Source: a virus (taxonomy: Duplodnaviria > Heunggongvirae > Uroviricota > Caudoviricetes). Taken from it: DNA of 10,778 nucleotides. The stretch spans positions 1 to 10,778 of IMG/VR virus record IMGVR_UViG_2579779002_000007, one strand, 5' to 3'. A model generated the notes under the pieces. The model ran no database searches. It was given only the letters and a program-made list of their open reading frames with translations, and was not told the DNA's origin. Positions 358-10,778 of this stretch are shown one piece after another; the stretch's first letter is position 1; each line of letters opens with the position of its first letter. Position numbers and translations under genes: made by a program.

Positions 358-375
358 GATTTATTCAACAAAGCC
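358..375. repeat. IS903 terminal inverted repeat (outer end)
   Basis: GATTTATTCAACAAAGCC, the reverse complement of the canonical 18-bp IS903 IR; abuts the truncated hsdS codons. Confidence 0.7.
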
Positions 376-442
376 CCCCCAATGGCAACCACTCAACCTC
401 AACCCCATCCAGCAATTTTTCCAGATAACTCATCTCGCTCAT
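376..442 (-). pseudogene. hsdS: Type I R-M specificity subunit hsdS, 5' remnant (about 22 codons) truncated by the IS903-family insertion
   Basis: Minus-strand ATG at 442-440 overlaps the hsdM stop (ATGA). Translation [23 protein letters not shown] matches the conserved N-terminus of type IC HsdS proteins, then runs directly into the IS terminal repeat at 375. Confidence 0.6.
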
Positions 443-2001
443 TTCTGCACCTCGCAGCCTTCAATTTCAGCCACAATCGCATCAATATCTTTGCGCAACT
501 GGTCGATTTTGCTGACCGTGGTTTTCAGTTCTGCATTCAACTCAGCGATATCGATAATTTCGCGAGTATCTTTCGCTTCCACATAGCTGCTCACTGACAG
601 GTTATAGTCATTAGCGACAACGGTCTCAAACGCGACAGATTTCGCCAGATGAGCAACATCTTCCTTGCTGGCAAATACCTGCATAATCTGTTCGATATGG
701 GCATCGGTCAGGATATTGTTGTTAGTCTCTTTTTTGAATAGCTCGCTGGCGTCAATAAACTGAACGTTGGTATCGGTTTTATGTTTAGACAGCACCAGAA
801 TGTTTACGGCAATGGTGGTGCCAAAGAACAGGTTCGGAGCCAGTGAAATCACGGTTTCGACATAGTTATTATCGACCAGATACTGACGGATTTTCTGCTC
901 CGCGCCGCCACGGTAAAAAATACCCGGGAAGCAGACAATCGCAGCACGACCTTTGGCCGAAAGATAGTTCAGCGCATGTAATACAAACGCAAAGTCAGCT
1001 TTGGATTTGGGGGCCAGAACGCCAGCCGGGGCAAAACGTTCATCGTTAATCAGCGTCGGGTCATCGCTGCCAATCCATTTCACCGAATACGGCGGGTTAG
1101 AAACGATGGCATCAAACGGTTTTTCATCTCTGAAGTGCGGTTCAGTCAGCGTATTGCCCAGCTTGATATCAAACTTGTCGTAGTTGATGTTGTGCAAAAA
1201 CATGTTCATACGCGCCAGGTTATAGGTCGTATGGTTGATTTCCTGACCAAAAAAAACTTCTTCGATGATATGGTCATCAAACTGTTTTTTAGCCTGCAAC
1301 AACAGCGAACCGGAGCCTGCTGCCGGGTCGTAGATTTTGTTAACGTGGGGCTGCCCGTGCATAGCCAGTTGTGCAATCAGCTTGGAGACGTGTTGCGGTG
1401 TAAAGAACTCGCCGCCTGACTTACCGGCATTCGCCGCATAGTTAGAAATCAGGAACTCATAGGCATCGCCAAACAGGTCAATCTGATGTTCATTGAAGTC
1501 ACCAAGTTTTAACCCTTCAACCCCTTTCAGAACCGCAGCCAGGCGGGCATTTTTATCCTTAACGGTGTTACCCAGGCGGTTACTGGTGGTATCGAAATCA
1601 GCAAACAAACCTTTGATGTCAGCTTCTGAAGGGTAACCGTAAGCAGAGCTTTCGATAGCAACGAAGATACTGTTTAAATCTGCATTCAGTCTGTCATTGG
1701 TATTTGCTTTCGCAGCTACGTTGCAGAAAAGCTGACTTGGGTAGATGAAGTAGCCTTTGGTTTTGATGGCATCGTCTTTAATGTCATCAGTAATTACGCT
1801 GTCATCCAGTTTCGCATAACAGATGCTGTCATCACCGGCTTCAATATAGCTGGAAAAATTTTCGCTGATAAAACGGTAGAAAAGTGCGCCCAGAACGTAT
1901 TGCTTAAAATCCCATCCATCGACCGAACCCCTGACATCGTTAGCAATTTGCCAGATTTGACGATGAAGCTCTGCACGTTGTTGAATACTTGTCATTTTCA
2001 T
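439..2001 (-). CDS. hsdM: Type I restriction-modification N6-adenine DNA methyltransferase subunit HsdM (EcoR124I-like, type IC)
   Basis: 520-aa ORF with AdoMet motif I ([10 protein letters not shown]) and catalytic motif IV (NPPY, in SNPPYSVKW). The N-terminus [17 protein letters not shown] and the 520-aa length match my recollection of EcoR124I HsdM. The stop overlaps the hsdS start. Confidence 0.9.
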
Positions 2002-2109
2002 CCACTTATTTCAGGCTTATGTAATTGGATGTGATTCTACAGCAACTTGGATGCTTTAGCAGTTCGGACATTAGGCTACGAATGACCTGCCTAGAGGTTT
2101 GTTAAGCCG

Positions 2110-2177
2110 CAAAGTGCTGGTGCTTTATGCCTGTGAAGTTTATAATTGTGTACACATAACGAGTACACGAGGTGTTT
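2110..2177 (+). promoter_or_regulatory. phd-doc promoter/operator region (perfect -10 TATAAT at 2141-2146; palindrome GTGTACAC at 2148-2155 and a second GTAC-centred half-site at about 2161-2168)
   Basis: Perfect TATAAT followed immediately by an 8-bp perfect palindrome and a related repeat, matching the known architecture of the autoregulated P1 phd-doc operator. GAGG RBS at 2169-2172. Confidence 0.55.
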
Positions 2178-2399
2178 ATGCAATCCATTAACTTCCGTAC
2201 CGCGCGTGGCAACCTTTCTGAAGTGCTCAACAATGTTGAGGCCGGGGAAGAGGTTGAAATCACCCGCAGAGGCCGTGAGCCAGCAGTAATTGTCAGCAAG
2301 GCTACTTTCGAAGCCTACAAAAAAGCGGCGCTGGATGCTGAATTTGCATCCCTGTTTGACACCCTGGACTCCACCAACAAGGAACTGGTTAACCGATAA
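2178..2399 (+). CDS. phd: Phd antitoxin (prevent-host-death), 73 aa
   Basis: [73 protein letters not shown] is recognised as P1 Phd. ATG at 2178 is preferred over the in-frame GTG at 2172 because of RBS spacing and the 73-aa product. Stop overlaps the doc start (TAATG). Confidence 0.9.
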
Positions 2400-2779
2400 T
2401 GAGGCATATATCACCGGAAGAACTTATTGCGCTTCATGATGCGAATATAAACCGCTACGGCGGCCTGCCGGGAATGTCAGATCCGGGTAGGGCAGAGGCC
2501 ATTATCGGGAGAGTTCAGGCCAGAGTTGCCTACGAAGAGATCACCGACCTTTTCGAAGTCTCCGCCACCTACCTGGTGGCTACGGCGAGAGGGCATATAT
2601 TCAATGATGCCAATAAGCGTACCGCGCTAAACAGTGCGCTGTTATTTCTACGCCGTAACGGGGTGCAGGTATTTGATTCACCTGAACTGGCAGACCTTAC
2701 CGTAGGGGCTGCGACTGGCGAGATATCTGTATCTTCTGTCGCCGCCACGTTACGTAGATTGTATGGTTCTGCGGAGTAG
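2399..2779 (+). CDS. doc: Doc toxin (death-on-curing; Fic/Doc-family kinase), 126 aa
   Basis: 126-aa product with the Fic/Doc core [11 protein letters not shown], recognised as P1 Doc; translationally coupled to phd. Confidence 0.9.
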
Positions 2780-2783
2780 ATTA

Positions 2784-2963
2784 ATGGCACGCAAATACAA
2801 CAAATTGTCCCGTGAAGCGTTAAAGATGCTTCTTGATGGCGTGAGTCGCCGCAAGGTAAAGCAATACCTGGTTGGTAAGCAAATTGGTGCCAGGACCGCT
2901 ATTGCTGTGTTATGCCGTCAGGAAATGGCTGTGCTTAAACAGAGAATGCCGGGCAGCAGATAA
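2784..2963 (+). CDS. pdcA: PdcA-like small protein (post-doc gene A), probable helix-turn-helix protein
   Basis: ORF immediately after doc. ATG at 2784 has a GGAG RBS at 2773-2776; the longer listed ORF starts at 2763 inside doc. Position matches P1 gene order phd-doc-pdcA-pdcB. Function unknown. Confidence 0.5.
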   Translation: MARKYNKLSREALKMLLDGVSRRKVKQYLVGKQIGARTAIAVLCRQEMAVLKQRMPGSR

Positions 2964-2990
2964 AGCCCAATCAGTGATTAAAGGTGTGAT

Positions 2991-4034
2991 GTGAAAGCCG
3001 TAATTACTCCCTTTGTACAGAAAGAGCTTGGCCTCGCCACGTTCAAAGTGGATCAGGAGGTCAGAAAGCTGGTGGAGGCTGGCCGTAAATTTATTATGGA
3101 GCCGGTGCCGCGTGAGTTAATCGAGCACATGGAAGACGGCCTCGTTGTTACCGAGCAAACCATGGCAACAAATGAGGCGTTGCAGCCGTTTTTTAACAGC
3201 GATGAACTGTTTCGCCGTATTGGTGGAATTGACGCGCTGGTGGCGTGGTTGCGTAGGAAAGAGGGTCAATGCCAGGCCGCAGATCGTAGTTGGTGTGACA
3301 ACCATATTGTCCACGCTGAACGAGACAATAGCGCTGTGTTGTTGTGCTGGCATCACGATAACCATTACCGGATGCGTGGTTTTAATGAGCTGAAAGAAAC
3401 GCTGCACAATAATCGCGTTAACTGGATACTGGATGTCGCCCGTCAGGAAATGGGCCTTTCAAATAGCCATGATTTAAGTATTCAGGAGCTGTGCTGGTGG
3501 GCTTTCATGCGCAACATGATGCACCTGATGCCGGAAGAAGTCTGCCGCATATCAATAAATAAGATGAAGGCTACTCCGCAGGATAGCGGACCTCTGAAAG
3601 AGGCGGATATTCGCCCGTATGACGATCGCGCTACAGCATATGTTCAGATGATGGAAGAACGCGCCGCGCCGATGCGTGCAAAAGTATGCCCTGTGGATGT
3701 TGACTCCGACCCAGGTATGGCGCATTTCAAAATACCAAAACTTCAATCGCTAAAATTGCCCGAGTACATGGACTTTGTGGCTTCCCGTCCATGCTGTGGC
3801 TGTGGAGCTGCGGGAGCTGGCGCTCACATTACGCCTTATATCGTTCGTCATAGTCGATTATGCGCGCATGACATTTATGCTATTCCTCTGTGCCAGTCAT
3901 GCCAGCGTGATATTGAGCGTGACCGCGATAATTGGGAGAAGACGCACGGCAGGCTGGCGATGCATCAACGATTGTTCTTTGATTACGCGCTTGGAGTCGG
4001 CGCTATCACAAGTCACTCGTCGAGCGTTAGATAA
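2991..4034 (+). CDS. pdcB: PdcB-like protein (post-doc gene B), 347 aa, with two Cys/His-rich HNH-like motifs
   Basis: 347-aa ORF with GTG start and AAGG RBS. Position matches P1 pdcB. Contains [15 protein letters not shown]…[10 protein letters not shown] (aa 94-125) and CCGCG…AHITPYI…IPLCQSCQR (aa 268-306). Confidence 0.6.
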
Positions 4035-4035
4035 A

Positions 4036-4052
4036 ATTGCTCTAATGTATTG
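4036..4052 (+). promoter_or_regulatory. C1 repressor operator-like site upstream of lpa
   Basis: ATTGCTCTAATGTATTG matches the recalled P1 C1 operator consensus ATTGCTCTAATAAATTT at 14 of 17 positions (first 11 perfect). Lies directly after the pdcB stop and upstream of lpa, which is known to be C1-controlled in P1. Confidence 0.45.
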
Positions 4053-4122
4053 CTATTTCTTTAATCAAGGGTATTATATTCGTCGTTGATTAGTTGACAT
4101 GGGCTAATCAGTAGGTGACAGG

Positions 4123-4575
4123 ATGTTACTTAACTGGCAGGGACGCCACTTCATGGAAATAAATCACTCACGAATAACATCGTACGAGATTGCGGATTAC
4201 ATGATCCGCACTAAATCTCTTCTATCAGCGAAAGAACTCGCAGCAATTCTTGAAAAGGAATACCCGCATCTGGATGTCGATAAGCGCGATGTTTATCTGC
4301 GCTTAAAGGCTATCGCTGTGTCTAAGTATTCGTCTGTTTTGATTGATGACAGTACACGCCCACGTAGATTTCAGATCCACTCTCTGAATCCTGAATTCTT
4401 TCGCCGTAGCCGCGCTCCGCGCCGGTTTGATGAAAAACTCCAGAACGAACTCTATATGACGCAGGACGAAAAGGAACGCCGGGAGCACCAGCCTTGGGTA
4501 ATGGCGCGTCAACTTTTCAATAAGGTGGCCCGTCAGCACCGTCATTACGGTAATGCCACATCCGCACGTATCTGA
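4123..4575 (+). CDS. lpa: Lpa-like late promoter activator (P1 gene 10)
   Basis: 150-aa basic protein in the conserved position between pdcB and pacA, preceded by a C1 operator-like site. The start may instead be the internal ATG at 4153. Confidence 0.65.
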   Translation: MLLNWQGRHFMEINHSRITSYEIADYMIRTKSLLSAKELAAILEKEYPHLDVDKRDVYLRLKAIAVSKYSSVLIDDSTRPRRFQIHSLNPEFFRRSRAPRRFDEKLQNELYMTQDEKERREHQPWVMARQLFNKVARQHRHYGNATSARI

Positions 4576-4584
4576 TTGATTGCT

Positions 4585-4606
4585 TGCCCGTTCCGGGCCT
4601 TTTGAC
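4585..4606 (+). terminator. Weak hairpin/attenuator-like structure after lpa (GCCCG-TTC-CGGGC followed by CTTTTG)
   Basis: 5-bp GC stem at 4585-4589/4593-4597 with a 3-nt loop and a short T-tract. Overlaps a perfect TTGACA hexamer at 4601-4606. Confidence 0.3.
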
Positions 4607-4661
4607 ATGTGACTTTCGTTACCCTCGCGTCAAAAAGAGTTTTATACGAAAGGAAGCATAA

Positions 4662-5855
4662 GTGACCTGGGACGATCACAAGAAGAATTTTGCTCGCCTG
4701 GCGCGAGATGGTGGTTACACCATCGCACAATATGCCGCCGAGTTTAATCTCAACCCAAACACCGCACGTCGTTATCTCCGTGCATTCAAAGAAGACACCG
4801 GAACAGCGGACAGCCGTAAGCCAAATAAGCCTGTCAGAAAACCACTAAAAAGCATGATCATTGATCACGCTAATGATCAACGTGCAAGTGATCACATTGT
4901 GGCTGAAATGGCTGAAAAACAAAGAGTTAATGCTGTTGTCAGTGCCGCAGTCGAGAACGCTAAGCGCCAAAATAAGCGCATAAATGATCGTTCTGATGAT
5001 CATGACGTGATCACCCGCGCCCACCGGACCTTACGTGATCGCCTGGAACGCGACACCCTGGATGATGATGGTGAACGCTTTGAATTCGAAGCTGGCGATT
5101 ACCTGATAGATAACGTTGAAGCGCGGAAGGCCGCGCGCGCTATGTTGCGTCGATCCGGGGCCGATGTTCTGGAAACCACTCTTCTGGAAAAGTCTCTTTC
5201 TCATCTCCTTATGCTGGAGAACGCCAGGGATACGTGTATTCGCCTGGTGCAGGAAATGCGCGATCAGCAAAAAGACGATGATGAAGGTACTCCGCCTGAA
5301 TACCGTATCGCGAGCATGCTAAACAGCTGTTCCGCGCAGATAAGCAGTCTGATCAACACCATTTACAGCATCCGGAATAACTATCGAAAAGAAAGCCGGG
5401 AGGCGGAAAAGCACGCTTTGTCTATGGGGCAAGCTGGCATTGTTAAGCTGGCATACGAACGAAAGCGTGAAAATAACTGGTCAGTGCTGGAAGCAGCTGA
5501 ATTCATCGAGGCGCATGGCGGGAAAGTGCCGCCCCTGATGCTGGAGCAAATCAAAGCCGATCTGCGTGCTCCTAAGACCAATACCGATGATGAGGAAAGG
5601 CAAACAGCCGTCGGTGGCCCTTCTCTTGAAGATCTGGACAAAGTTGCGCGAGAACGGGCCGCCAACCGCCGCGCCGATGCCGCATTGTGGATTGAGCAGC
5701 GTAGGGAAGAAATCGCCGATATCGTTGATACAGGCGGTTATGGAGATGTTGATACTGAAGGTGTATCAAACGACCCATGGCTGGAACAAGACCTGGACGA
5801 AGACGAGGAGGAAGACGAAGAAGTTACCCGCAAGCTATACGGGGATGATGATTAA
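4662..5855 (+). CDS. pacA: PacA, P1-type terminase pac-recognition (small) subunit, 397 aa
   Basis: GTG start with AAGGAAG RBS; 397 aa, matching P1 PacA length. The pac site hexamer repeats lie inside the 5' part of the ORF as in P1. Stop overlaps the pacB ATG (TAATG). Confidence 0.85.
4855..5014. other. pac: pac packaging site: 4 + 3 hexanucleotide TGATC(A/G) elements, each carrying a Dam GATC site
   Basis: TGATCA at 4855-4860, 4862-4867, 4874-4879 and 4889-4894 (left cluster). TGATCG at 4985-4990, TGATCA at 4998-5003 and 5009-5014 (right cluster). Matches the known P1 pac architecture with cleavage between the clusters. Confidence 0.7.
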
Positions 5856-7339
5856 TGGCCAGAAGTTGCGTAACGGATCCACGTTGGCGCGAGTTGGTGG
5901 CGCTATATCGTTATGACTGGATTGCGGCCGCTGATGTTTTGTTCGGCAAAACACCTACCTGGCAGCAGGATCTGATTATTGAGTCTGTGCAGGAACAGGG
6001 TAGCAAGACATCTGTTTCGTCTGGTCACGGTACCGGGAAATCAGACATGACTTCTATCATGATCATGTTGTTCATAATCATGTATCCCGGTGCCCGTGCC
6101 ATTATCGTTGCGAACAAAATTCAGCAGGTAATGACCGGTATATTCAAGTACATCAAGATAAACTGGGCTACGGCCACCAGCCGTTTTCCGTGGCTTGCTG
6201 ATTATTTTGTTCTGACAGAAACCGCTTTTTATGAAGTTACTGGTAAAGGTGTATGGACTGTAGTACCGAAGGGCTTTCGTCTGGGAAGTGAATAAGCTCT
6301 CGCAGGTGAACACGCAGATCATCTTCTGTATATTATCGATGAAGCCTCCGGTGTCAGTGATAGAGCTTTCGGTATCATCACCGGTGCTCTTACCGGACAG
6401 GATAACCGCATCTTATTGCTGTCACAGCCTACACGCCCAAGCGGCTATTTCTACGATACTCACCATAAACTGGCCAAGCGTCCTGGTAACCCTGATGGCG
6501 TTTATACGGCGATCACGCTTAACAGTGAGGAATCACCGCTGGTAACGCCAGCATTTATCAAAATGAAGCTGGCGGAGTACGGCGGGCGTGATAACCCTAT
6601 GTACATGATTAAGGTACGCGGACTATTCCCTAAATCACAGGATGGCTTCCTTCTTGGACGTGATGAGGTTGAACGTGCGACGCGGCGGAAAGTCAAGATT
6701 GCCAAAGGATGGGGCTGGCTTGCATGTGTGGACGTTGCTGGTGGTACGGGACGGGATAAGTCCGTTATCAATATCATGATGGTGTCCGGCCAGAGAAATA
6801 AACGCCGTGTAATCAACTATCGAATGCTGGAATACACAGACGTTACAGAAACGCAGCTTGCCGCCAAAATTTTCGCAGAATGTAATCCTGAGCGATTCCC
6901 AAATATCACCATAGCGATAGACGGCGATGGCCTGGGTAAAGCAACGGCGGATCTGATGTACGAGTATTATGGTATTACCGTACAGCGTATACGCTGGGGT
7001 AAAAAGATGCATAGCCGTGAAGATAAGAGCCTGTACTTTGATAAACGTGCTTATGCCAACGTTCAAGCCGCAGAGGCCGTAAAATCTGGTCGTATGAGAC
7101 TGGATAAGGGTAATGAAACTATTGAGGAAGCGTCGAAAATCCCTGTAGGGATTAACTCCGCGGGTCAATGGAAAGTGATGAGTAAGGAGGATATGAAGAA
7201 AAAACTCAACCTGCACTCACCAGACCATTGGGATACATATTGTTTCGCTATGCTGGCGGATTATGTTCCTCAGGATGAAGTGCTTAGCGTCGAAGACGAA
7301 GCGCAGGTTGATGAAGCTCTGGCATGGCTTAATGAATGA
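5855..7339 (+). pseudogene. pacB: PacB-like large terminase subunit, 494 codons in total, interrupted by an in-frame TAA at codon 147 (6293-6295)
   Basis: ORF-track pieces 5855-6295 and 6416-7339 are in the same frame. Hand translation of 6296-6415 is open and encodes the Walker B-like segment [15 protein letters not shown]. Walker A (SGHGTGKS) lies upstream of the stop. Total length of 1485 nt equals the expected P1 PacB size. Confidence 0.7.
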
Positions 7340-7342
7340 ACA

Positions 7343-7359
7343 TTTGCTCTAATGAATTG
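7343..7359 (+). promoter_or_regulatory. C1 operator-like site immediately downstream of pacB stop
   Basis: TTTGCTCTAATGAATTG matches the C1 operator consensus at 14 of 17 positions, with a perfect TTGCTCTAAT core. Confidence 0.4.
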
Positions 7360-7484
7360 TGTTTTTTAACTACCGATGTTACATTGAACCTGACCTCTTG
7401 CGCCTTGAGGCATTTTCGGTTTATGCTTATCAGGCACCTCATTAAAACGGGTGCCGGGATTGAGACCCCGGATAATGCAAAAGG

Positions 7485-7519
7485 CGACACAGACGCCAAA
7501 AGCGTCTTTTTTTGTGTCA
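7485..7519 (+). terminator. Rho-independent terminator after the pac operon
   Basis: Stem AGACGC (7491-7496) / GCGTCT (7502-7507), loop CAAAA, followed by a T7 run (7507-7513). An outer GACACA/TGTGTC pair extends the hairpin. No U-tract on the opposite strand. Confidence 0.55.
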
Positions 7520-7555
7520 TGCCATCGCACAGCCATACGTAGCGTTTAGCTCAGA

Positions 7556-7648
7556 GATCAATGGTAGTGCTGGCTGGGCTGCCGAAAGGCAGGCCGGTTC
7601 CCTTTTGCGCCGGTAGTCTCAACCCAGTCAGTGCTACCGCCATTGAGA
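7556..7648 (+). ncRNA. c4: c4-like antisense RNA candidate (immI-type translational repressor, tRNA-like fold)
   Basis: 7-bp long-range stem TCAATGG (7558-7564) / CCATTGA (7640-7646) encloses a CTGGG/CCCAG helix, a GNRA hairpin (CTGCC-GAAA-GGCAG, 7579-7592) and a hairpin (CCGG 7594-7597 / CCGG 7610-7613) whose 12-nt loop contains CCTTTTGC (7601-7608), perfectly complementary to GCAAAAGG (7680-7687) at the icd RBS. Boundaries are approximate. Confidence 0.4.
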
Positions 7649-7698
7649 TTGAGACCTCACGCGGTAGCTCCTTAAATTAGCAAAAGGAGGCTGCCATT

Positions 7699-7920
7699 GT
7701 GGCTACTATCCCTACCCCTGCTCATTCTGAATTTATCTGGCGCTTTTACTCCTGCCAAAAACGTCACTATCACTTCGTTATTGCACCGACAGAAGATGAG
7801 GCACGTTCTCAGCTTCCGGATGCTCCCTGTATTTTCTCTGCCCGCTTTTCTACCGATTCGCGCAATTCTCTCAGTTACTGGTGCCTCCCTATTAACGCTT
7901 CTGCTCAGGAGGGACTATGA
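7699..7920 (+). CDS. icd: Icd-like small protein (interference with cell division), 73 aa
   Basis: GTG start 8 nt after AAGGAGG (7684-7690). 73 codons matches the recalled size of P1 Icd. Stop overlaps the ant ATG (ATGA), consistent with translational coupling. Frame choice is uncertain. Confidence 0.45.
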   Translation: MATIPTPAHSEFIWRFYSCQKRHYHFVIAPTEDEARSQLPDAPCIFSARFSTDSRNSLSYWCLPINASAQEGL

Positions 7921-9029
7921 GAACGTCATTAGTCACCCGTGAAGAGATGATCGAGGCAATTGAACAGCACACTGCCTGTATCAGTACCAGGGATATACCG
8001 GGCGTTATTGCCAACTACTTCATGATCACCAAACAACTTTACCGGAGAAAGGACAAACACGCGGTTCACCGCATTCTGCTAACCGATATCCGTGAATACC
8101 TGCTCGAACAGGGTCATCTGAATTACGCAACCGTCGCAGCCGAAGCACGCAAGGAGGCACACAGAATGAAAGCAACTAACGTTAAATCAGAAAAAATTTA
8201 TGCACCTTCAGTTCAGGAATCGGAACTGGTGGTTGTTCAGAATCAGCCGGATGAAATTCCCGTTCTGGAATGGCAGGGAGTACGTGTCGTGACAACCGAA
8301 ACTCTTGCTAGAGGGTATGGGGTCGATGAAGCCAATATTCGCAACAATTTGTCTCGCAACCTTGACCGCTTTGAAGAAGGTAAGCATTACTTTCTTCTAA
8401 CTGGTTTAAAATTAAGAGAATTTAAGAACAGAGTAACCGGAAGTTACTCTGTTGGTAAGAACGCCAGAAGCCTTACACTCTGGACAGAGCGCGGCGCTGC
8501 ACGCATGTCTAAGATCGTGGACACAAATGAAGCATGGGCATTCTTTGAAAAACTGGAAGACAGCTACTTCCGGCAAAAAGAACAGCAACCGGTTGCAATC
8601 CCCCAAACATTACCAGAAGCCCTACGCCTGGCTGCCGAACTGGCTGAACAAAAGCAGCTTCTGGAACAGAAAGCCCACCAGCTAAATCAGCAGCTGGTAG
8701 CCGCCGCTCCTAAGGTCGATTTTGCCGACCGGGTATCAGTAGCTAAAGGGATCCTGATTGGGAATTTTGCAAAGGTTGTTGGACTTAAGCAAAACGCGCT
8801 GTTTGCCTGGTTACGGGAGAACGGCATCCTGATAGCGTCCGGTGGACGTAAAAATGTGCCGTTCCAGCAGTACATCAACGCGGGGTATTTCACGGTGAAA
8901 GAAGTGGTGCTGGATGATGAAGATGGCTACCAGATACGGTTGACGCCTCAATTAACGGGTAAAGGCCAGCAGTGGTTGACGCGTAAACTGCTCGATGCTG
9001 GCTTGTTAAAACCGGTGGCGGCTGAATAA
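7917..9029 (+). CDS. ant: Antirepressor Ant (Ant1, 370 aa), N-terminal Ant/ORF6N-like domain plus C-terminal KilA-C/ANT domain; nested in-frame Ant2 start at 8166
   Basis: Central segment VLEWQGVRVVTTETLARGYGVDEANIRNNLSRNLDRFEEGKHYF and C-terminal segment GNFAKVVGLKQNALFAWLRENGILIASGGRKNVPFQQYINAGYFTVKEV are typical of phage antirepressor domains. Internal ATG at 8166 (Met84) is preceded by a perfect AAGGAGG at 8151-8157. Confidence 0.75.
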   Translation: MRTSLVTREEMIEAIEQHTACISTRDIPGVIANYFMITKQLYRRKDKHAVHRILLTDIREYLLEQGHLNYATVAAEARKEAHRMKATNVKSEKIYAPSVQESELVVVQNQPDEIPVLEWQGVRVVTTETLARGYGVDEANIRNNLSRNLDRFEEGKHYFLLTGLKLREFKNRVTGSYSVGKNARSLTLWTERGAARMSKIVDTNEAWAFFEKLEDSYFRQKEQQPVAIPQTLPEALRLAAELAEQKQLLEQKAHQLNQQLVAAAPKVDFADRVSVAKGILIGNFAKVVGLKQNALFAWLRENGILIASGGRKNVPFQQYINAGYFTVKEVVLDDEDGYQIRLTPQLTGKGQQWLTRKLLDAGLLKPVAAE

Positions 9030-9036
9030 TGGAAGA

Positions 9037-9064
9037 ATGCCCGGTTGATGCCGGGCATAATTTA
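9037..9064. terminator. Hairpin between convergent ant and c1 (probable bidirectional terminator)
   Basis: 8-bp perfect stem ATGCCCGG (9037-9044) / CCGGGCAT (9051-9058) with a 6-nt loop, flanked by AT-rich sequence on both sides. Sits between the ant stop (9029) and the c1 stop (9062-9064). Confidence 0.5.
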
Positions 9065-9913
9065 TTGCGCGCTTTCGGGGTTGTCGTTTACTGGCTGCCC
9101 CTTCTTGGTTTTACGGCTGCGCGTAACTGATGCGGCTGACTTAACCTTTTTCTCTTCGCGAGTGATGGCAATTTGTTTTTTTACATTTTCAATATCTGCC
9201 AGGCGATATATTTTTGCTTGCGGCCAGCGGTCGCAGATGATCGGTTCTATGGAGTCATAAAGGCTAAATTTTGCTTTTTCGAATTCACCGTTGATGATAA
9301 TTCCATCACGGAGAGTTTCATCGCAGATAAACACGCCACACAGTGGCACATGGTAACTAACTGATTTACCATCATTGTAGTTAGGGCTACTGGAAATGTA
9401 GTGGACGCGCAGCATTGTTTCGCTAAAGCCGTGTACGCGCATACGGAATTTTTCATCCTCCGGGTACTGCTTCATTAGCTCTTTTGTTGCTTCCAGGTTC
9501 TCTATGTATTTCGCACTGTGCTCATTGATCCCCGCGCTTTTTTGGATGCGAATATCCTTATCAATCAGATGAATAATGCGGCCAGCGGTCATGTTGACGC
9601 TGTTCACAGCCTCTGTCTGATAAGTTGTAACCTTACGCACACCGCGAAGGATGTTAGGCACTGGATATAAAATAGTCTTTGGGATATTGAGGTCTGGGTA
9701 CTGTTCCAGTTCCCGCGCCATTAAAGTCCATTTATCAATTTCAGCCTGAATGCTGTCAGTTTCTTTGAACGGTAGAACGACAACCGGGCGTACAGGACGA
9801 CCGTCGCTGGCTGTATCAACGTGTTGGGCGCGTGCAACAGCTTTTTTTAGAAAGAGATCCCTGAAGCTGACGAACTCCTGGTACAGTTGTTCGCCGTAGA
9901 CATAATTTATCAT
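9062..9913 (-). CDS. c1: C1 repressor of lysogeny (P1 immC), 283 aa
   Basis: 283-aa product beginning MINYVYGEQLYQEFVSFRDLF, recognised as P1 C1. GGAGGAGG RBS upstream of the ATG on the minus strand. Confidence 0.9.
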   Translation of the reverse strand: MINYVYGEQLYQEFVSFRDLFLKKAVARAQHVDTASDGRPVRPVVVLPFKETDSIQAEIDKWTLMARELEQYPDLNIPKTILYPVPNILRGVRKVTTYQTEAVNSVNMTAGRIIHLIDKDIRIQKSAGINEHSAKYIENLEATKELMKQYPEDEKFRMRVHGFSETMLRVHYISSSPNYNDGKSVSYHVPLCGVFICDETLRDGIIINGEFEKAKFSLYDSIEPIICDRWPQAKIYRLADIENVKKQIAITREEKKVKSAASVTRSRKTKKGQPVNDNPESAQ

Positions 9914-10007
9914 TGATCCTCCTCCAGAATTGACATGGCCAATAACGCCCGGCTGAGAAAACCGGTCATTACTGACCTATATTATAGAGGGATCAAACAA
10001 AAATAAT

Positions 10008-10024
10008 AGATTTATTAGTGCATT
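10008..10024 (-). promoter_or_regulatory. C1 operator-like site (Op99-type) between coi and c1
   Basis: Reverse complement AATGCACTAATAAATCT matches the C1 operator consensus at 14 of 17 positions. Located in the c1 upstream region where P1 carries autoregulatory operators. Confidence 0.45.
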
Positions 10025-10233
10025 TATTGTGAGTCTAACTGGTTAGTTGCCATGAGATATTCGATTGTGTCAGTGAGGTCATCCAGGTCGTCTTGGGTGA
10101 TGCGGTACTCCTGATTGGATATCTTTGAGTAGTGTTCAGCAATGGCGCGGGCAGCGTCGGTTTCGGCAGGGTCTACAGATAAAGCGTTAGAGCAATGTCT
10201 AACGTCGTCGATGGTTGGTTGAATGAAAGCCAT
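10024..10233 (-). CDS. coi: Coi, C1 inactivator protein, 69 aa
   Basis: 69-aa acidic protein directly upstream of c1 on the same strand; size and position match P1 Coi. Confidence 0.85.
   Translation of the reverse strand: MAFIQPTIDDVRHCSNALSVDPAETDAARAIAEHYSKISNQEYRITQDDLDDLTDTIEYLMATNQLDSQ
10180..10196 (-). promoter_or_regulatory. Additional C1 operator-like site inside the coi coding region
   Basis: Reverse complement ATTGCTCTAACGCTTTT matches the consensus at 13 of 17 positions, with a perfect ATTGCTCTAA half. Confidence 0.3.
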
Positions 10234-10316
10234 AATTATGCCTCACTGTATTGACAACACAGAGCCTGAAGCTCTGACCTACTGTTTCACCCATGATCCA
10301 TGCTGGGGTAATCTAA

Positions 10317-10778
<462 letters not shown>

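Follow-up and report, generated by a model that had tools for sequence, protein, structure and literature searches.

What kind of molecule does the DNA directly upstream of icd specify, and which sites does it recognise? The window, i.e. the whole stretch of 10,778 nucleotides analysed here, was previously read from its letters alone, and that original prediction took positions 7556-7695 for a tRNA-like structured RNA of the P1/P7 c4 type that is antisense to the icd ribosome-binding site (RBS). Our data uphold the core of this claim: the region matches the C4 antisense RNA family, Icd and Ant homologues follow downstream, the control region is collinear with the ImmI regions of phages P1 and P7, and the antisense elements co-vary with their targets. 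The best explanation, to which we assign a probability of close to nine in ten, is that a c4-type RNA silences icd-ant within an ImmI-like module. All features described below lie on the plus strand.

The C4 RNA and its fold

The covariance-model search that the original prediction had proposed as a check was positive: the Rfam C4 antisense RNA model RF01695 matches 7557-7644 with 75 bits (gathering score 45; E = 1.4e-13), and the match spans the full length of the model (positions 1-87 of 87). Folding, the second check proposed, gave a minimum free energy of -46.4 kcal/mol for 7557-7644, compared with -28.7 +/- 3.2 kcal/mol for shuffled sequences (z = -5.6; 0 of 200 shuffles were as good), and the minimum free energy structure is also the centroid. 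The fold is a three-way junction, in which a long closing helix encloses two hairpins. A three-helix junction had indeed been foreseen, but with a 7-bp acceptor-like stem; the closing helix instead measures 16-17 bp (7562/3-7578 with 7623-7638/9). Hairpin 1 (7579-7592, CUGCC-GAAA-GGCAG), which appears in both the Rfam model and the fold, carries the anticipated GNRA tetraloop as GAAA at 7584-7587, and 4 of its 4 consensus pairs co-vary across the C4 family alignment. Hairpin 2 (7593-7614), placed by the Rfam model, the fold and a pairing check, bears a 12-nt loop, UUCCCUUUUGCG at 7598-7609, on a GCCGG/CCGGU stem, and this loop displays the antisense element b', CCUUUUGC (7601-7608). In the RNAalifold consensus of 53 type representatives, compensatory changes are found in 15 of 24 pairs. 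By family match, fold statistics and family covariation, 7557-7644 is a genuine copy of the phage P1 c4-type antisense RNA.

P1 c4 is excised by RNase P from a longer transcript as an RNA of ~77 nt. Using the annotated mature P1 c4 (L001 3344-3420) as a guide to the mature ends, we find U(-1)/G(+1) at 7562/7563 aligned with the mature 5' end of P1 c4, and the stem is followed by GCCA at 7639-7642. The mature RNA is predicted to extend from approximately 7563 to 7641 (~79 nt), comprising a 16-bp stem, then G, then CC(A).

An RNA that ends in a stem and GCCA also brings a tRNA to mind, as do two motifs that had been pointed out earlier, TAGCTCAG (7547-7554) and GGTTCC (7596-7601), which resemble tRNA D-arm and T-arm motifs. 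The region could on these grounds be regarded as a tRNA-derived element, such as a pseudo-tRNA or an attachment site, whose complementarity to the Shine-Dalgarno (SD) sequence arose by chance. Both motifs are present, but the significance attached to them did not survive: TAGCTCAG falls outside the C4 RNA, in the 5' leader, and is not conserved, near-identical relatives having TAGCTCCA or TAGCTCCG, and GGTTYC is conserved as part of C4 hairpin 2, not as a tRNA motif. ARAGORN detected no tRNA genes in 7400-7750, and the Rfam tRNA model had no match in the window, the same model finding the tRNAs of the near-identical phage JL22. This null result and complementarity that is kept across 59 different address types (see below) refute the tRNA-like reading, and a tRNA-derived element with chance complementarity is extremely improbable.

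Current annotation raises another possibility. The C4 RNA gene is not annotated in the records of the carrier phages JL22 and RCS47, and RefSeq (PGAP) calls the C4 region an 'ash family protein' CDS. This frame, located at 7561-7680 in the window, has 39 codons and covers the C4 RNA and a2, the first target site; it would make the product of the region a small protein and not an RNA. Its translation matches PF10554 with 29.1 bits (cut-off 26), and frame 0 is more often free of stop codons than the other two. However, what is conserved in the region is base pairing, kept up by compensatory changes that alter the peptide, and the AUG of the frame coincides with the site at which RNase P cuts P1 c4, A(-2)U(-1)/G(+1). 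Furthermore, the window frame has no SD, and in P1 the frame is broken after 14 codons. Because conservation lies in the base pairs and the frame is broken in P1, we regard the PF10554 match as translated conserved RNA. In 50 of 72 sequences the conserved AUG and the downstream start share a reading frame. Of these 50, half fall into a single length class; counted by distinct length, the three phases are represented 5/4/4. It is very unlikely that the region encodes a protein in place of an RNA, and the 'ash' frame, a doubtful CDS, is probably a by-product of the RNA.

Antisense elements, their targets and their co-variation

The claim that the loop of hairpin 2 is perfectly complementary to a site on the AAGGAGG RBS proved accurate. 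Written as DNA, b' is CCTTTTGC at 7601-7608 and is exactly complementary to GCAAAAGG at 7680-7687, and this target, b2 (7680-7690), overlaps the SD AAGGAGG at 7684-7690. A recount of the longer pairing between 7593-7608 and 7680-7695 (16 positions) likewise returned the predicted 2 mismatches and 3 G-U pairs, together with 11 Watson-Crick pairs, and all sequence elements that the original prediction had named were found where it had placed them or at most 1-2 bases away.

What did not hold was the suggestion that only one target site is present. A second antisense element, a' (GUCUCAA, 7616-7622), occupies the single-stranded stretch of the junction that joins hairpin 2 to the closing stem, as it does in P1 and P7. 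Its exact complement, UUGAGAC, occurs downstream as a2 (7649-7655), the first target in the icd-ant mRNA leader, and upstream as a1 (7460-7466) in the loop of leader hairpin 2. The exact complement of b' is also found upstream, as b1 (GCAAAAGG, 7477-7484) in a single-stranded leader linker, and both a1 and b1 occupy the same positions as the annotated a1 and b1 of P1. With a2 and b2 downstream and a1 and b1 upstream, the six complementary elements form the full P1 set. In the window as a whole, GCAAAAGG or its complement occurs three times, always inside 7477-7687 (0.49 expected), and TTGAGAC or its complement occurs three times within 7460-7655 and once elsewhere (1.22 expected).

The duplex energies on the cognate downstream targets are -8.8 kcal/mol for a' on a2 and -12.4 kcal/mol for b' on b2, which 13-31 of 1000 shuffled targets equal; with the upstream sites they are -8.8 kcal/mol (a'-a1) and -13.1 kcal/mol (b'-b1). 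The spacing from a2 to b2, 24 nt, is the mode of the family. Since 7593-7597 sit in the hairpin-2 stem, the accessible core of b' is just 8 bp; a' provides 7 bp, and the remainder of the 16-position pairing requires opening of that stem.

Homologous loci were obtained from IMG/VR with pattern scans that accepted a b' loop of P1 length or one base longer and demanded CAACCC, P7-type junctions (CUAACCC) falling outside the sample. The patterns also caught approximately 30 unique non-C4 chance matches, and RNAalifold predicted only 3 pairs for the unfiltered matches; filtering for a closing helix of at least 10 bp left 141 unique loci with 59 a'/b' address types. Across these 141 loci, a' and b' co-vary with their targets. 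An exact complement of at least 7 nt to the locus's own a' or b' is present in the flanks at a1 in 92%, at a2 in 94%, at b1 in 84% and at b2 in 94% of the loci, whereas swapped addresses find flank complements in 0.2-6% (a2 0.2%, b2 3%) and the non-C4 pattern matches in 0-3%. The upstream a1/b1 sites co-vary with a'/b' as strongly as the downstream a2/b2 sites do. Natural single-element switches are among the 59 addresses of this small sample, and one natural allele in a near-identical scaffold has a1, a' and a2 switched jointly, GAGAC to GGAAC and UCUC to UUCC (a1 allele TTGGAAC).

The transcript, icd-ant and the genomic setting

Upstream of the leader, a consensus scan and alignment located a C1-repressor operator-like 17-mer, TTTGCTCTAATGAATTG (7343-7359), which has 3 mismatches to the operator consensus ATTGCTCTAATAAATTT, aligns with the annotated P1 and P7 operators (Op(c4)) and is the counterpart of P1 Oc4/Op51. 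The window contains three operator-like sites compared with 0.04 expected. By alignment to P1 we place a putative promoter for the leader-c4-icd-ant transcript at 7398-7427 (TTGCGC, 18-nt spacer, TATGCT). In both the c4-a1b1 model alignment and a MAFFT alignment, TATGCT lines up with the annotated -10 TATAGT of the P1 promoter P1c4 (former P51b), and the putative promoter lies 7 nt upstream of the isrK model start. Its match to the consensus is too poor for the promoter scan to pick it up, and a scan of 7513-7556 found no separate c4 promoter. The sole promoter-like match, TTGAGA-18-TAAATT at 7649-7678, was discarded, being at chance level (1 found, 0.5 expected).

The leader RNA with a1 and b1 (7434-7512) matches the Rfam isrK model RF01394 with 59 bits (gathering score 50) over model positions 1-77 of 77. 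This match includes the terminator stem, which is the intrinsic terminator-like hairpin AGACGC-CAAAA-GCGUCU followed by U7 that the terminator scan placed at 7491-7512. The c4-a1b1 model RF03163, though aligned full length, reached 22.3 bits on the leader, below its gathering score of 46.7, and for this reason the leader is not filed under RF03163. With a1 and b1 placed as in c4-a1b1, the leader should nevertheless act alike, as a functional counterpart. Production of c4 requires read-through of the leader terminator.

The icd homologue (7699-7920, 73 aa) was identified by protein comparison and by NCBIfam NF033153 (49.9 bits versus 25); its product is 81% identical to P1 Icd, and relatives have ATG where the window icd has its GTG start. 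The ant gene (7917-9029, 370 aa) encodes an antirepressor recognised by its Pfam domains, ANT/KilAC (1.5e-31) and ORF6N (2.5e-18), and this Ant shares 57% identity with P1 Ant1, from which its middle domain differs. The start of ant overlaps the icd stop as ATGA (7917-7920), and the overlap, along with work on P1 and P7, leads us to predict that ant is translationally coupled to icd.

The icd SD is predicted to be buried in a local hairpin (7664-7695) formed by GGUAG/CUGCC and UCCUU/AAGGA. That CTCCTT sequesters the RBS by pairing with AAGGAG had been proposed before, and we find both motifs (7668-7673 and 7684-7689) paired in the predicted fold, where the SD has an unpaired probability of 0.16 and GCAA (7680-7683) one of 0.99, the 5' half of b2 being exposed in the loop. 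The chance of finding CTCCTT in a shuffled 41-nt upstream segment is 0.005, and close relatives show one variant of the hairpin, at the loop-closing pair. The SD is more sequestered than in spacer-shuffled controls in 49 of 65 loci, a statistic that ignores relatedness, and local sequestering of the SD thus appears as a statistical tendency of the C4 family in these modelled folds.

In the order C1 operator-like site, putative promoter, a1/b1 leader with terminator, c4, a2, b2/SD, icd and ant, the locus makes up an ImmI-like immunity module with all its parts, carried by a P1-like phage-plasmid. It is a second c4-icd-ant cassette and lies between pacB and c1, the latter being the next gene after the module (NF041318, 611.6 bits). 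In JL22 the second cassette coexists with the canonical ImmI c4, and blastn showed it to be likewise additional to canonical ImmI in RCS47, D6, 673R5 and Ro157c2YLVW. The cognate a'+b' duplex amounts to -21.2 kcal/mol, compared with -13.9 kcal/mol on the canonical JL22 target and -8.7 kcal/mol in the reverse direction; non-cognate a'+b' duplexes range from -5.7 to -15.7 kcal/mol, comparable to the heteroimmune P1/P7 pair (-9.0 and -14.0 kcal/mol). The module or close relatives of it occur in 409 of 5,426 complete E. coli genomes, almost always plasmid-borne. Many P1-like plasmids with the module carry resistance genes, e.g. CTX-M-55 on JL22. The window's pacB has a premature stop, and the phage may therefore be defective.

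Proposed mode of action and comparison with known systems

If a c4-type RNA silences icd-ant here, the transcript would start near 7434 and pass the leader terminator. A cut by RNase P between U7562 and G7563, with 3' trimming, would then yield the RNA of ~79 nt with its 16-bp stem and 3' GCC(A) tail. The released RNA would pair in trans with the icd-ant mRNA, a' with a2 and b' with b2 across the SD, and translation of icd would be blocked. Because translation of ant would be coupled to that of icd, no antirepressor would be made, and C1 repression, i.e. the lysogenic or plasmid state, would be maintained. The work on P1 and P7 is our basis for expecting processing by RNase P, repression in trans, coupling with polarity and this biological outcome.

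The processed RNA could also pair with its flanking sites mainly for premature transcription termination and not for blocking ribosomes. P4 CI acts in this way on replication genes. In blastn, the C4 region aligns with the P4 cI region at 72.8% identity (query positions 123-289), a1 and b1 directly precede a terminator, and the authors of the IsrK study draw a parallel with P4 seqA/CI/seqC (PMC4825925). Yet in the window the SD of the first ORF lies partly within b2, and the arrangement of b2 and SD indicates the same family-wide; the genes downstream are icd-ant as in P1, not P4 replication genes; and the terminator scan found no terminator-like site 3' of a2/b2. In P1, lowered transcription reportedly results from the translational block, as Biere, Citron and Schuster are said to have found in 1992. 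We consider it unlikely that termination is the main mode of action.

A different challenge to simple repression comes from IsrK of Gifsy-1, a lambdoid prophage of Salmonella. The model of Hershko-Shalev et al. 2016 (PMC4825925) stresses activation by a short leader RNA and mentions neither P1 c4 nor RNase P: IsrK accumulates as a short, Hfq-binding sRNA that acts in trans to switch on translation downstream; compensatory mutations confirmed the a1-a' pairs G28-C162 and G31-C159, and the read-through transcript was seen to be processed to an ~80-nt RNA (PMC4825925). We find that the published IsrK mutations map exactly onto a1-a'. By the same logic, the terminated a1/b1 sRNA (7434-7512) of the window would pair with a'/b', open the leader or titrate c4, and activate icd-ant, C4 being mainly a structured, translatable mRNA leader. 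The isrK match above threshold and the intact intrinsic terminator are consistent with such activation, as are the exact complementarity of a1/b1 to a'/b', with the energies given above, and a co-variation equal to that of the downstream sites; moreover, the frame from the conserved AUG is open for at least 30 codons in 92% of the loci. On the other hand, the window frame ends at 7678-7680, 18 nt before the icd start, the P1 frame is the truncated one described above, and the in-frame relation to the downstream gene is accounted for by one dominant length class. In addition, c4 is a genetically defined trans repressor in P1/P7 (record annotation; PMC8546580). Activation of this type, which would complement repression by c4, is a possibility that we put forward tentatively.

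Because the same architecture has been read in Gifsy-1 as a leader sRNA that activates small-ORF translation, the simple picture in which c4 represses may be incomplete. Speculatively, the module could be a three-layer RNA switch in which c4 represses icd-ant, the a1/b1 sRNA sponges c4 or remodels its precursor to turn the antirepressor on, and RNase P is set against ash/orf45 translation. RNase P would split the conserved AUG at the c4 5' end and so compete with that translation, and ribosomes in the ash/orf45 frame would unfold c4, a2 and the SD hairpin; a replicon could hold two such switches with separate addresses. If this were true, the P1 c4 model and the Gifsy-1 IsrK model would describe one machine from two sides. 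JL22-like plasmids would run two non-cross-reacting switches, the canonical ImmI and one beside c1, and the c1-adjacent switch may act as an input of its own, for induction or anti-immunity.

Which co-resident or superinfecting P1-like elements can silence each other's antirepressor would depend on the a'/b' address, so that immunity and compatibility groups of phage-plasmids should be predictable from a catalogue of addresses. Mapping the Gifsy-1 IsrK mutations onto a1-a' joins two literatures that do not cite each other's mechanism and lends the a1/b1 sites of P1, long called 'putative', a function that can be tested.

Several known systems share parts of this layout. P4 CI (seqA-CI-seqC) has nucleotide similarity to the C4 region and is a processed small RNA between upstream and downstream complementary sites, and its region, as in the window, was historically misannotated as a protein (cI / Ash); the window target differs in overlapping the SD before icd-ant. 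The c4-a1b1 motif RF03163 (Weinberg et al. 2010, PMC2864571) shares its two hairpins with the leader, with a1 in the second loop and b1 after it. The isrK model additionally covers b1 and the terminator; the window leader passes the isrK model but not the c4-a1b1 model, the Gifsy-1 leader passes both, and that of P1 passes c4-a1b1 only.

The Gifsy-1 IsrK - STnc1160/orf45 - AnrP locus has the same pair of Rfam matches, isrK then C4, in the same order and spacing. It shares the layout of a1, b1, a', b', a2 and b2/SD, the antirepressor downstream and an intrinsic terminator on the leader. Its addresses differ (a' ACGCCAA, b' CGGUGA), and it resides in a lambdoid prophage, not a P1-like plasmid. 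Gifsy-1 also lacks icd: orf45, the positional counterpart of the 'ash' frame, runs for 45 codons from the C4 AUG to an ATGA overlap with anrP, whereas the window frame stops short of icd.

The c4 antisense RNA of the P1/P7 ImmI operon was reportedly described by Citron and Schuster in 1990 and 1992. It belongs to the same RF01695 family and has the same three-way junction, with a' in the junction and b' in the hairpin-2 loop. In the ImmI regions of P1 and P7, too, c4 is flanked by a1/b1 on its 5' side and by a2/b2 on its 3' side, b2 covers the icd SD and icd overlaps ant, and their C1 operator lies where the window has its operator-like site. The whole control region is collinear with the window in alignment, and the P1 leader has an equivalent hairpin and U-run at the place of the terminator. 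The window module differs in its site, between pacB and c1 compared with between sim and kilA-repL for ImmI of P1/P7, in the ORF6N middle domain of its Ant, which is unlike that of P1, and in the predicted local SD hairpin, which P1 itself lacks. Compared with P1/P7 c4, the b' loop has one extra base. The guess at a variant specificity in the original prediction was sound: a' is GUCUCAA in the window, CUGUCAA in P1 and CUGCUAA in P7, and b' is CCUUUUGC in the window, UCACUAAC at the same position in P1 and UCACAAUC in P7. As these addresses are unlike those of P1, P7 and the canonical ImmI c4, the module should be an independent, non-cross-reacting circuit. Our findings leave the knowledge of how c4 RNAs work unchanged; the C4 RNA described here is ordinary in kind, a known type of molecule with a new recognition specificity.

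The C4 RNA and its targets

A c4-type antisense RNA occupies 7557-7644 (+), surrounded by a complete control region resembling that of ImmI, the c4-icd-ant immunity operon of phages P1 and P7. The Rfam C4 antisense RNA model (RF01695) matches it over the full model length with 75 bits against a gathering threshold of 45 (E = 1.4e-13), which bears out the original prediction of a c4-type RNA and the model search proposed with it; the sequence features listed there for 7556-7695 are all present in the window. The 88 nt have a minimum free energy of -46.4 kcal/mol, with a centroid of the same structure, compared to -28.7 +/- 3.2 kcal/mol for shuffled sequences (z = -5.6), none of 200 of which equals the native stability. 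The predicted fold is a three-way junction on the plus strand, in which the closing stem of 16-17 bp (7562/3-7578 paired to 7623-7638/9), longer than the 7 bp first proposed, holds hairpin 1 (7579-7592; CUGCC-GAAA-GGCAG), hairpin 2 (7593-7614; GCCGG, a 12-nt loop, CCGGU) and a single-stranded junction of 8 nt (7615-7622). Across 53 type representatives of the family, compensatory changes occur at 15 of 24 consensus pairs, a count that has to be read knowing that the search pattern itself partly fixed the hairpin-2 stem.

The address of the RNA, meaning its antisense elements, consists of a' GUCUCAA (7616-7622) in the junction and b' CCUUUUGC (7601-7608) in the hairpin-2 loop. Where a single target site had been suspected, the window holds the complete P1 set, all on the plus strand: a1 UUGAGAC (7460-7466) and b1 GCAAAAGG (7477-7484) in the upstream leader, a2 UUGAGAC (7649-7655) downstream of C4, and b2 GCAAAAGG (7680-7687), which overlaps the Shine-Dalgarno sequence (SD) AAGGAGG (7684-7690). 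There are 4 matches to the a motif in the window vs 1.22 expected and 3 to the b motif vs 0.49, both clustered in a 270-nt region. The pairing of 7593-7608 with 7680-7695 does have 2 mismatches and 3 G-U pairs over its 16 positions, as originally described; since hairpin 2 uses five of these positions for its stem, the b' core open to pairing is 8 bp.

Homologous loci were collected from IMG/VR using two structure-anchored patterns that left a' and b' free, and chance matches were removed by keeping sequences that fold with 10 bp or more in the closing helix, a filter independent of a'/b' complementarity. In the resulting 141 unique loci with 59 a'/b' combinations, an exact complement of at least 7 nt to the locus's own address, compared to a swapped one, was found in the flanks for a1 in 92% vs 1.8%, for a2 in 94% vs 0.2%, for b1 in 84% vs 6.1% and for b2 in 94% vs 3.1%, while non-C4 pattern matches (n = 31) gave 0-3%. 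A joint change of a1, a' and a2 is seen in a natural allele pair on the window's own, near-identical scaffold, one with a1/a2 TTGAGAC and a' GTCTCAA, the other with a1/a2 TTGGAAC and a' GTTCCAA.

A second cassette in P1-like phage-plasmids

The window comes from a P1-like phage-plasmid: it has 99.7% identity to phage JL22 and 94.8% to RCS47 over 7400-8000, and about 98% identity over 9.9 kb to many plasmids of E. coli, E. fergusonii and E. albertii. The best plasmid matches span 371-10316 only, and the ends (1-370 and 10317-10778) diverge. The gene order is hsdM (-), phd-doc, pdcA, pdcB (DUF968), lpa, pacA, pacB, the C4 region and c1 (minus strand; NF041318, 611.6 bits). The type I restriction-modification gene hsdM (439-2001, -) adjoins phd-doc, where JL22 has humD. 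The icd homologue (7699-7920, +; NCBIfam NF033153) is 81% identical to P1 Icd, its start being fixed at GTG 7699 by the ATG that close relatives have at the same codon. The antirepressor gene ant (7917-9029, +) encodes KilAC (1.5e-31) and ORF6N domains, and its ATG and the icd stop overlap in the sequence ATGA, as in P1. Compared to P1 Ant1 (57% identity) the N- and C-terminal parts are common and the middle domain, which contains ORF6N, is replaced. Ant identity ranges from 83% to 100% across otherwise near-identical cassettes, indicating that the antirepressor itself is mosaic. A hairpin read by eye between the convergent ant and c1 genes (9030-9061; ATGCCCGG-TTGA-TGCCGGGCAT) is probably a bidirectional terminator. 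In pacB (5855-7339), encoding the terminase large subunit, an in-frame premature TAA at 6293-6295 stands where JL22 has GAA (E147*); over 1485 nt the two genes otherwise differ by 21 substitutions, with no indels. With this stop, the element in its present copy probably cannot package DNA and may be a defective P1-like plasmid.

JL22 holds two modules, the canonical c4-icd-ant1-kilA-repL at 43.4-46.7 kb and a window-type module between pacB and c1; RCS47, D6, 673R5 and Ro157c2YLVW likewise match both module queries. Since 'two short orfs and ant' inserted between pacB and c1 (PMC6906374) and a second c4/icd region in D6-like prophages (PMC6799933) were noted earlier, the cassette is not new as DNA. 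Of 5,426 complete E. coli genomes, 409 contain close relatives of the 267-nt module, and 428 of the 443 places are on plasmids. In IMG/VR the scaffold has several settings: the pacB-c1 interval, where it shows three address combinations; the canonical site, which lies upstream of kilA; and non-P1-like contexts with more distant Icd homologues (65-67% identity). Among plasmids, the pacB-c1 site carries at least three combinations on an almost identical scaffold (CCUUUUGC with GUCUCAA, CCUUUUGC with GUUCCAA, and loop UUCCCUUUGACG with GUCUCAA), and these variants look like natural immunity-specificity switches.

Specificity and mechanism compared with P1 and P7

The P1 GenBank record gives the order operator Oc4, two promoters, a1, b1, c4, a2, b2, icd and ant. 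P1 has a' CUGUCAA as the junction strand and b' UCACUAAC in the hairpin-2 loop, and the six elements of the window occupy the same structural positions. P7 has CUGCUAA and UCACAAUC, and the canonical ImmI of JL22 combines a P1-type a' (CUGUCAA) with a P7-type b' (UCACAAUC). The window address differs from all three in both a' and b', in line with the variant specificity originally guessed. Cognate pairs have predicted a'+b' duplex energies of -19.5 to -21.2 kcal/mol, compared to -13.9 kcal/mol for the window c4 on the canonical JL22 target and -8.7 in the reverse direction, values comparable to those of the non-cognate P1/P7 combinations (-9.0 and -14.0 kcal/mol). P1 and P7 are reportedly heteroimmune through minor ImmI differences (PMC6906374). 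The canonical JL22 c4 region (43395-43660) has a P1-type a element (CUGUCAA / TTGACAG) and a P7-type b element (UCACAAUC / GATTGTG), a hybrid suggestive of reassortment of the a and b elements. Across the IMG/VR loci, too, a' and b' types are mixed in a modular fashion.

The P1/P7 mechanism is the best-supported reading for the window module. RNase P would process the read-through transcript to release c4, a' and b' would pair in trans with a2 and b2, and this pairing would block icd initiation, a block that coupling would extend to ant expression. C4 family membership, fold, elements, synteny and co-variation are established for the window. Processing, repression and polarity would carry over to the window module from P1/P7, as suggested by the P1/P7 record annotations, by PMC8546580 and by classical work reportedly done by Citron and Schuster (1990/1992), Hartmann et al. 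(1995) and Biere et al. (1992). Aligned to the mature P1 c4 as annotated, the mature window RNA is expected at about 7563-7641, comprising the 16-bp stem, a discriminator-like G7639 and CC, followed by A7642; stem and CCA tail are conserved across the C4 family.

The local hairpin originally proposed to sequester the SD is also predicted by folding (SD unpaired probability 0.16). The 5' half of b2 (GCAA) lies in its loop with an unpaired probability of 0.99, a modelled geometry that would favor loop-loop nucleation with b'. An anti-SD in the a2-b2 spacer is a family tendency: 49 of 65 loci have an SD less accessible than in spacer-shuffled controls (Wilcoxon p = 5e-7, kinship ignored), with 0.17 vs 0.41 for the window type. 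P1 lacks the effect. A promoter-like TTGAGA-18-TAAATT (7649-7678, +) within the a2-b2 interval is at chance level (1 vs 0.5 expected); its use would yield an icd mRNA without a2.

Leader, 'ash' frame and the link to Gifsy-1 IsrK

The element carrying a1 and b1 matches Rfam isrK (59 bits vs 50), with a1 in the loop of its second hairpin, b1 in the linker and, from a terminator scan, an intrinsic terminator (+; AGACGC-CAAAA-GCGUCU and U7) at its 3' end. Rfam c4-a1b1 aligns to the window leader over its full length, yet scores 22.3 bits, under the threshold of 46.7. As the P1 leader shows the opposite pattern (c4-a1b1 51.0, isrK 35.1) and both models pass on one element in the Salmonella prophage Gifsy-1 (minus strand 34131-34329; isrK 79.3 bits, c4-a1b1 48.1 bits), the two families appear redundant, describing one kind of element. 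The C4 clan CL00128 does not include isrK. In a four-way alignment, a C1-operator-like 17-mer (7343-7359, +) aligns with Op(c4) as annotated in P1 and P7, and TATGCT (7422-7427) with the -10 of the P1 promoter P1c4. The window has three such 17-mers vs 0.04 expected; the other two, each with 3 mismatches, lie just upstream of lpa (4036-4052, +) and in the c1/coi upstream region (10008-10024, -), and P1 also has operators before lpa and in the c1/coi region. JL22 is annotated with a 68-aa hypothetical protein, gp120, at 7336-7542 (+); this frame spans the operator-like site, the putative promoter and the isrK-like RNA with its terminator, has no Pfam or NCBIfam matches, and was probably called as a CDS in error.

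A 39-codon 'ash family protein' (7561-7680, +), a RefSeq/PGAP CDS, lies exactly on the C4 RNA and a2. Pfam PF10554 supports it with 29.1 bits vs a cut-off of 26, frame 0 is open for at least 30 codons in 92% of 103 loci (other frames 69% and 17%), and in 50 of 72 sequences its AUG shares the frame of the downstream start. Shared ancestry can explain this openness and in-frame excess, since one length accounts for 36 of the 50, and the distinct lengths divide 5/4/4 over the three phases. This even split, the end of the frame after 14 codons in P1 and the absence of an SD before the AUG in the window disfavor a real gene. The AUG coincides with A(-2)U(-1)/G(+1) of the predicted RNase P site, and the window frame stops 18 nt before icd. 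Most probably a conserved RNA has been translated here, and the CDS call is an artefact.

Its positional counterpart in Gifsy-1 is orf45, a 45-codon frame from a conserved AUG at the C4 5' end to an ATGA overlap with the antirepressor gene anrP. The Gifsy-1 order is isrK, C4, then anrP, and the processed STnc1160 RNA (~80 nt) is the C4 homologue. With the published numbering mapped onto the sequence, a1 is at transcript positions 26-32, b1 at 42-47, b' at 145-150, a' at 158-164, a2 at 192-198 and b2, on the anrP SD, at 223-228. The compensatory mutations G28A/C162U and G31A/C159U (PMC4825925) map to a1-a' base pairs, and G114/C175 to the C4 closing helix. That paper likens the Gifsy-1 system to P4 CI, with P1 c4 and RNase P unmentioned, and reports that a short leader RNA activates translation in trans. 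This trans activation gives an experimental footing to the hypothesis that the window leader might, as a tentative and rather unlikely additional layer, be an anti-antisense RNA, either titrating c4 or remodelling the precursor. The C4 family, fold and mechanism are textbook, and the new part is the address variant in an already known second cassette of P1-like plasmids; the value of the finding lies mainly in two modules per replicon that are predicted not to cross-react, in natural address switches, and in the link between P1 c4 and Gifsy-1 IsrK.
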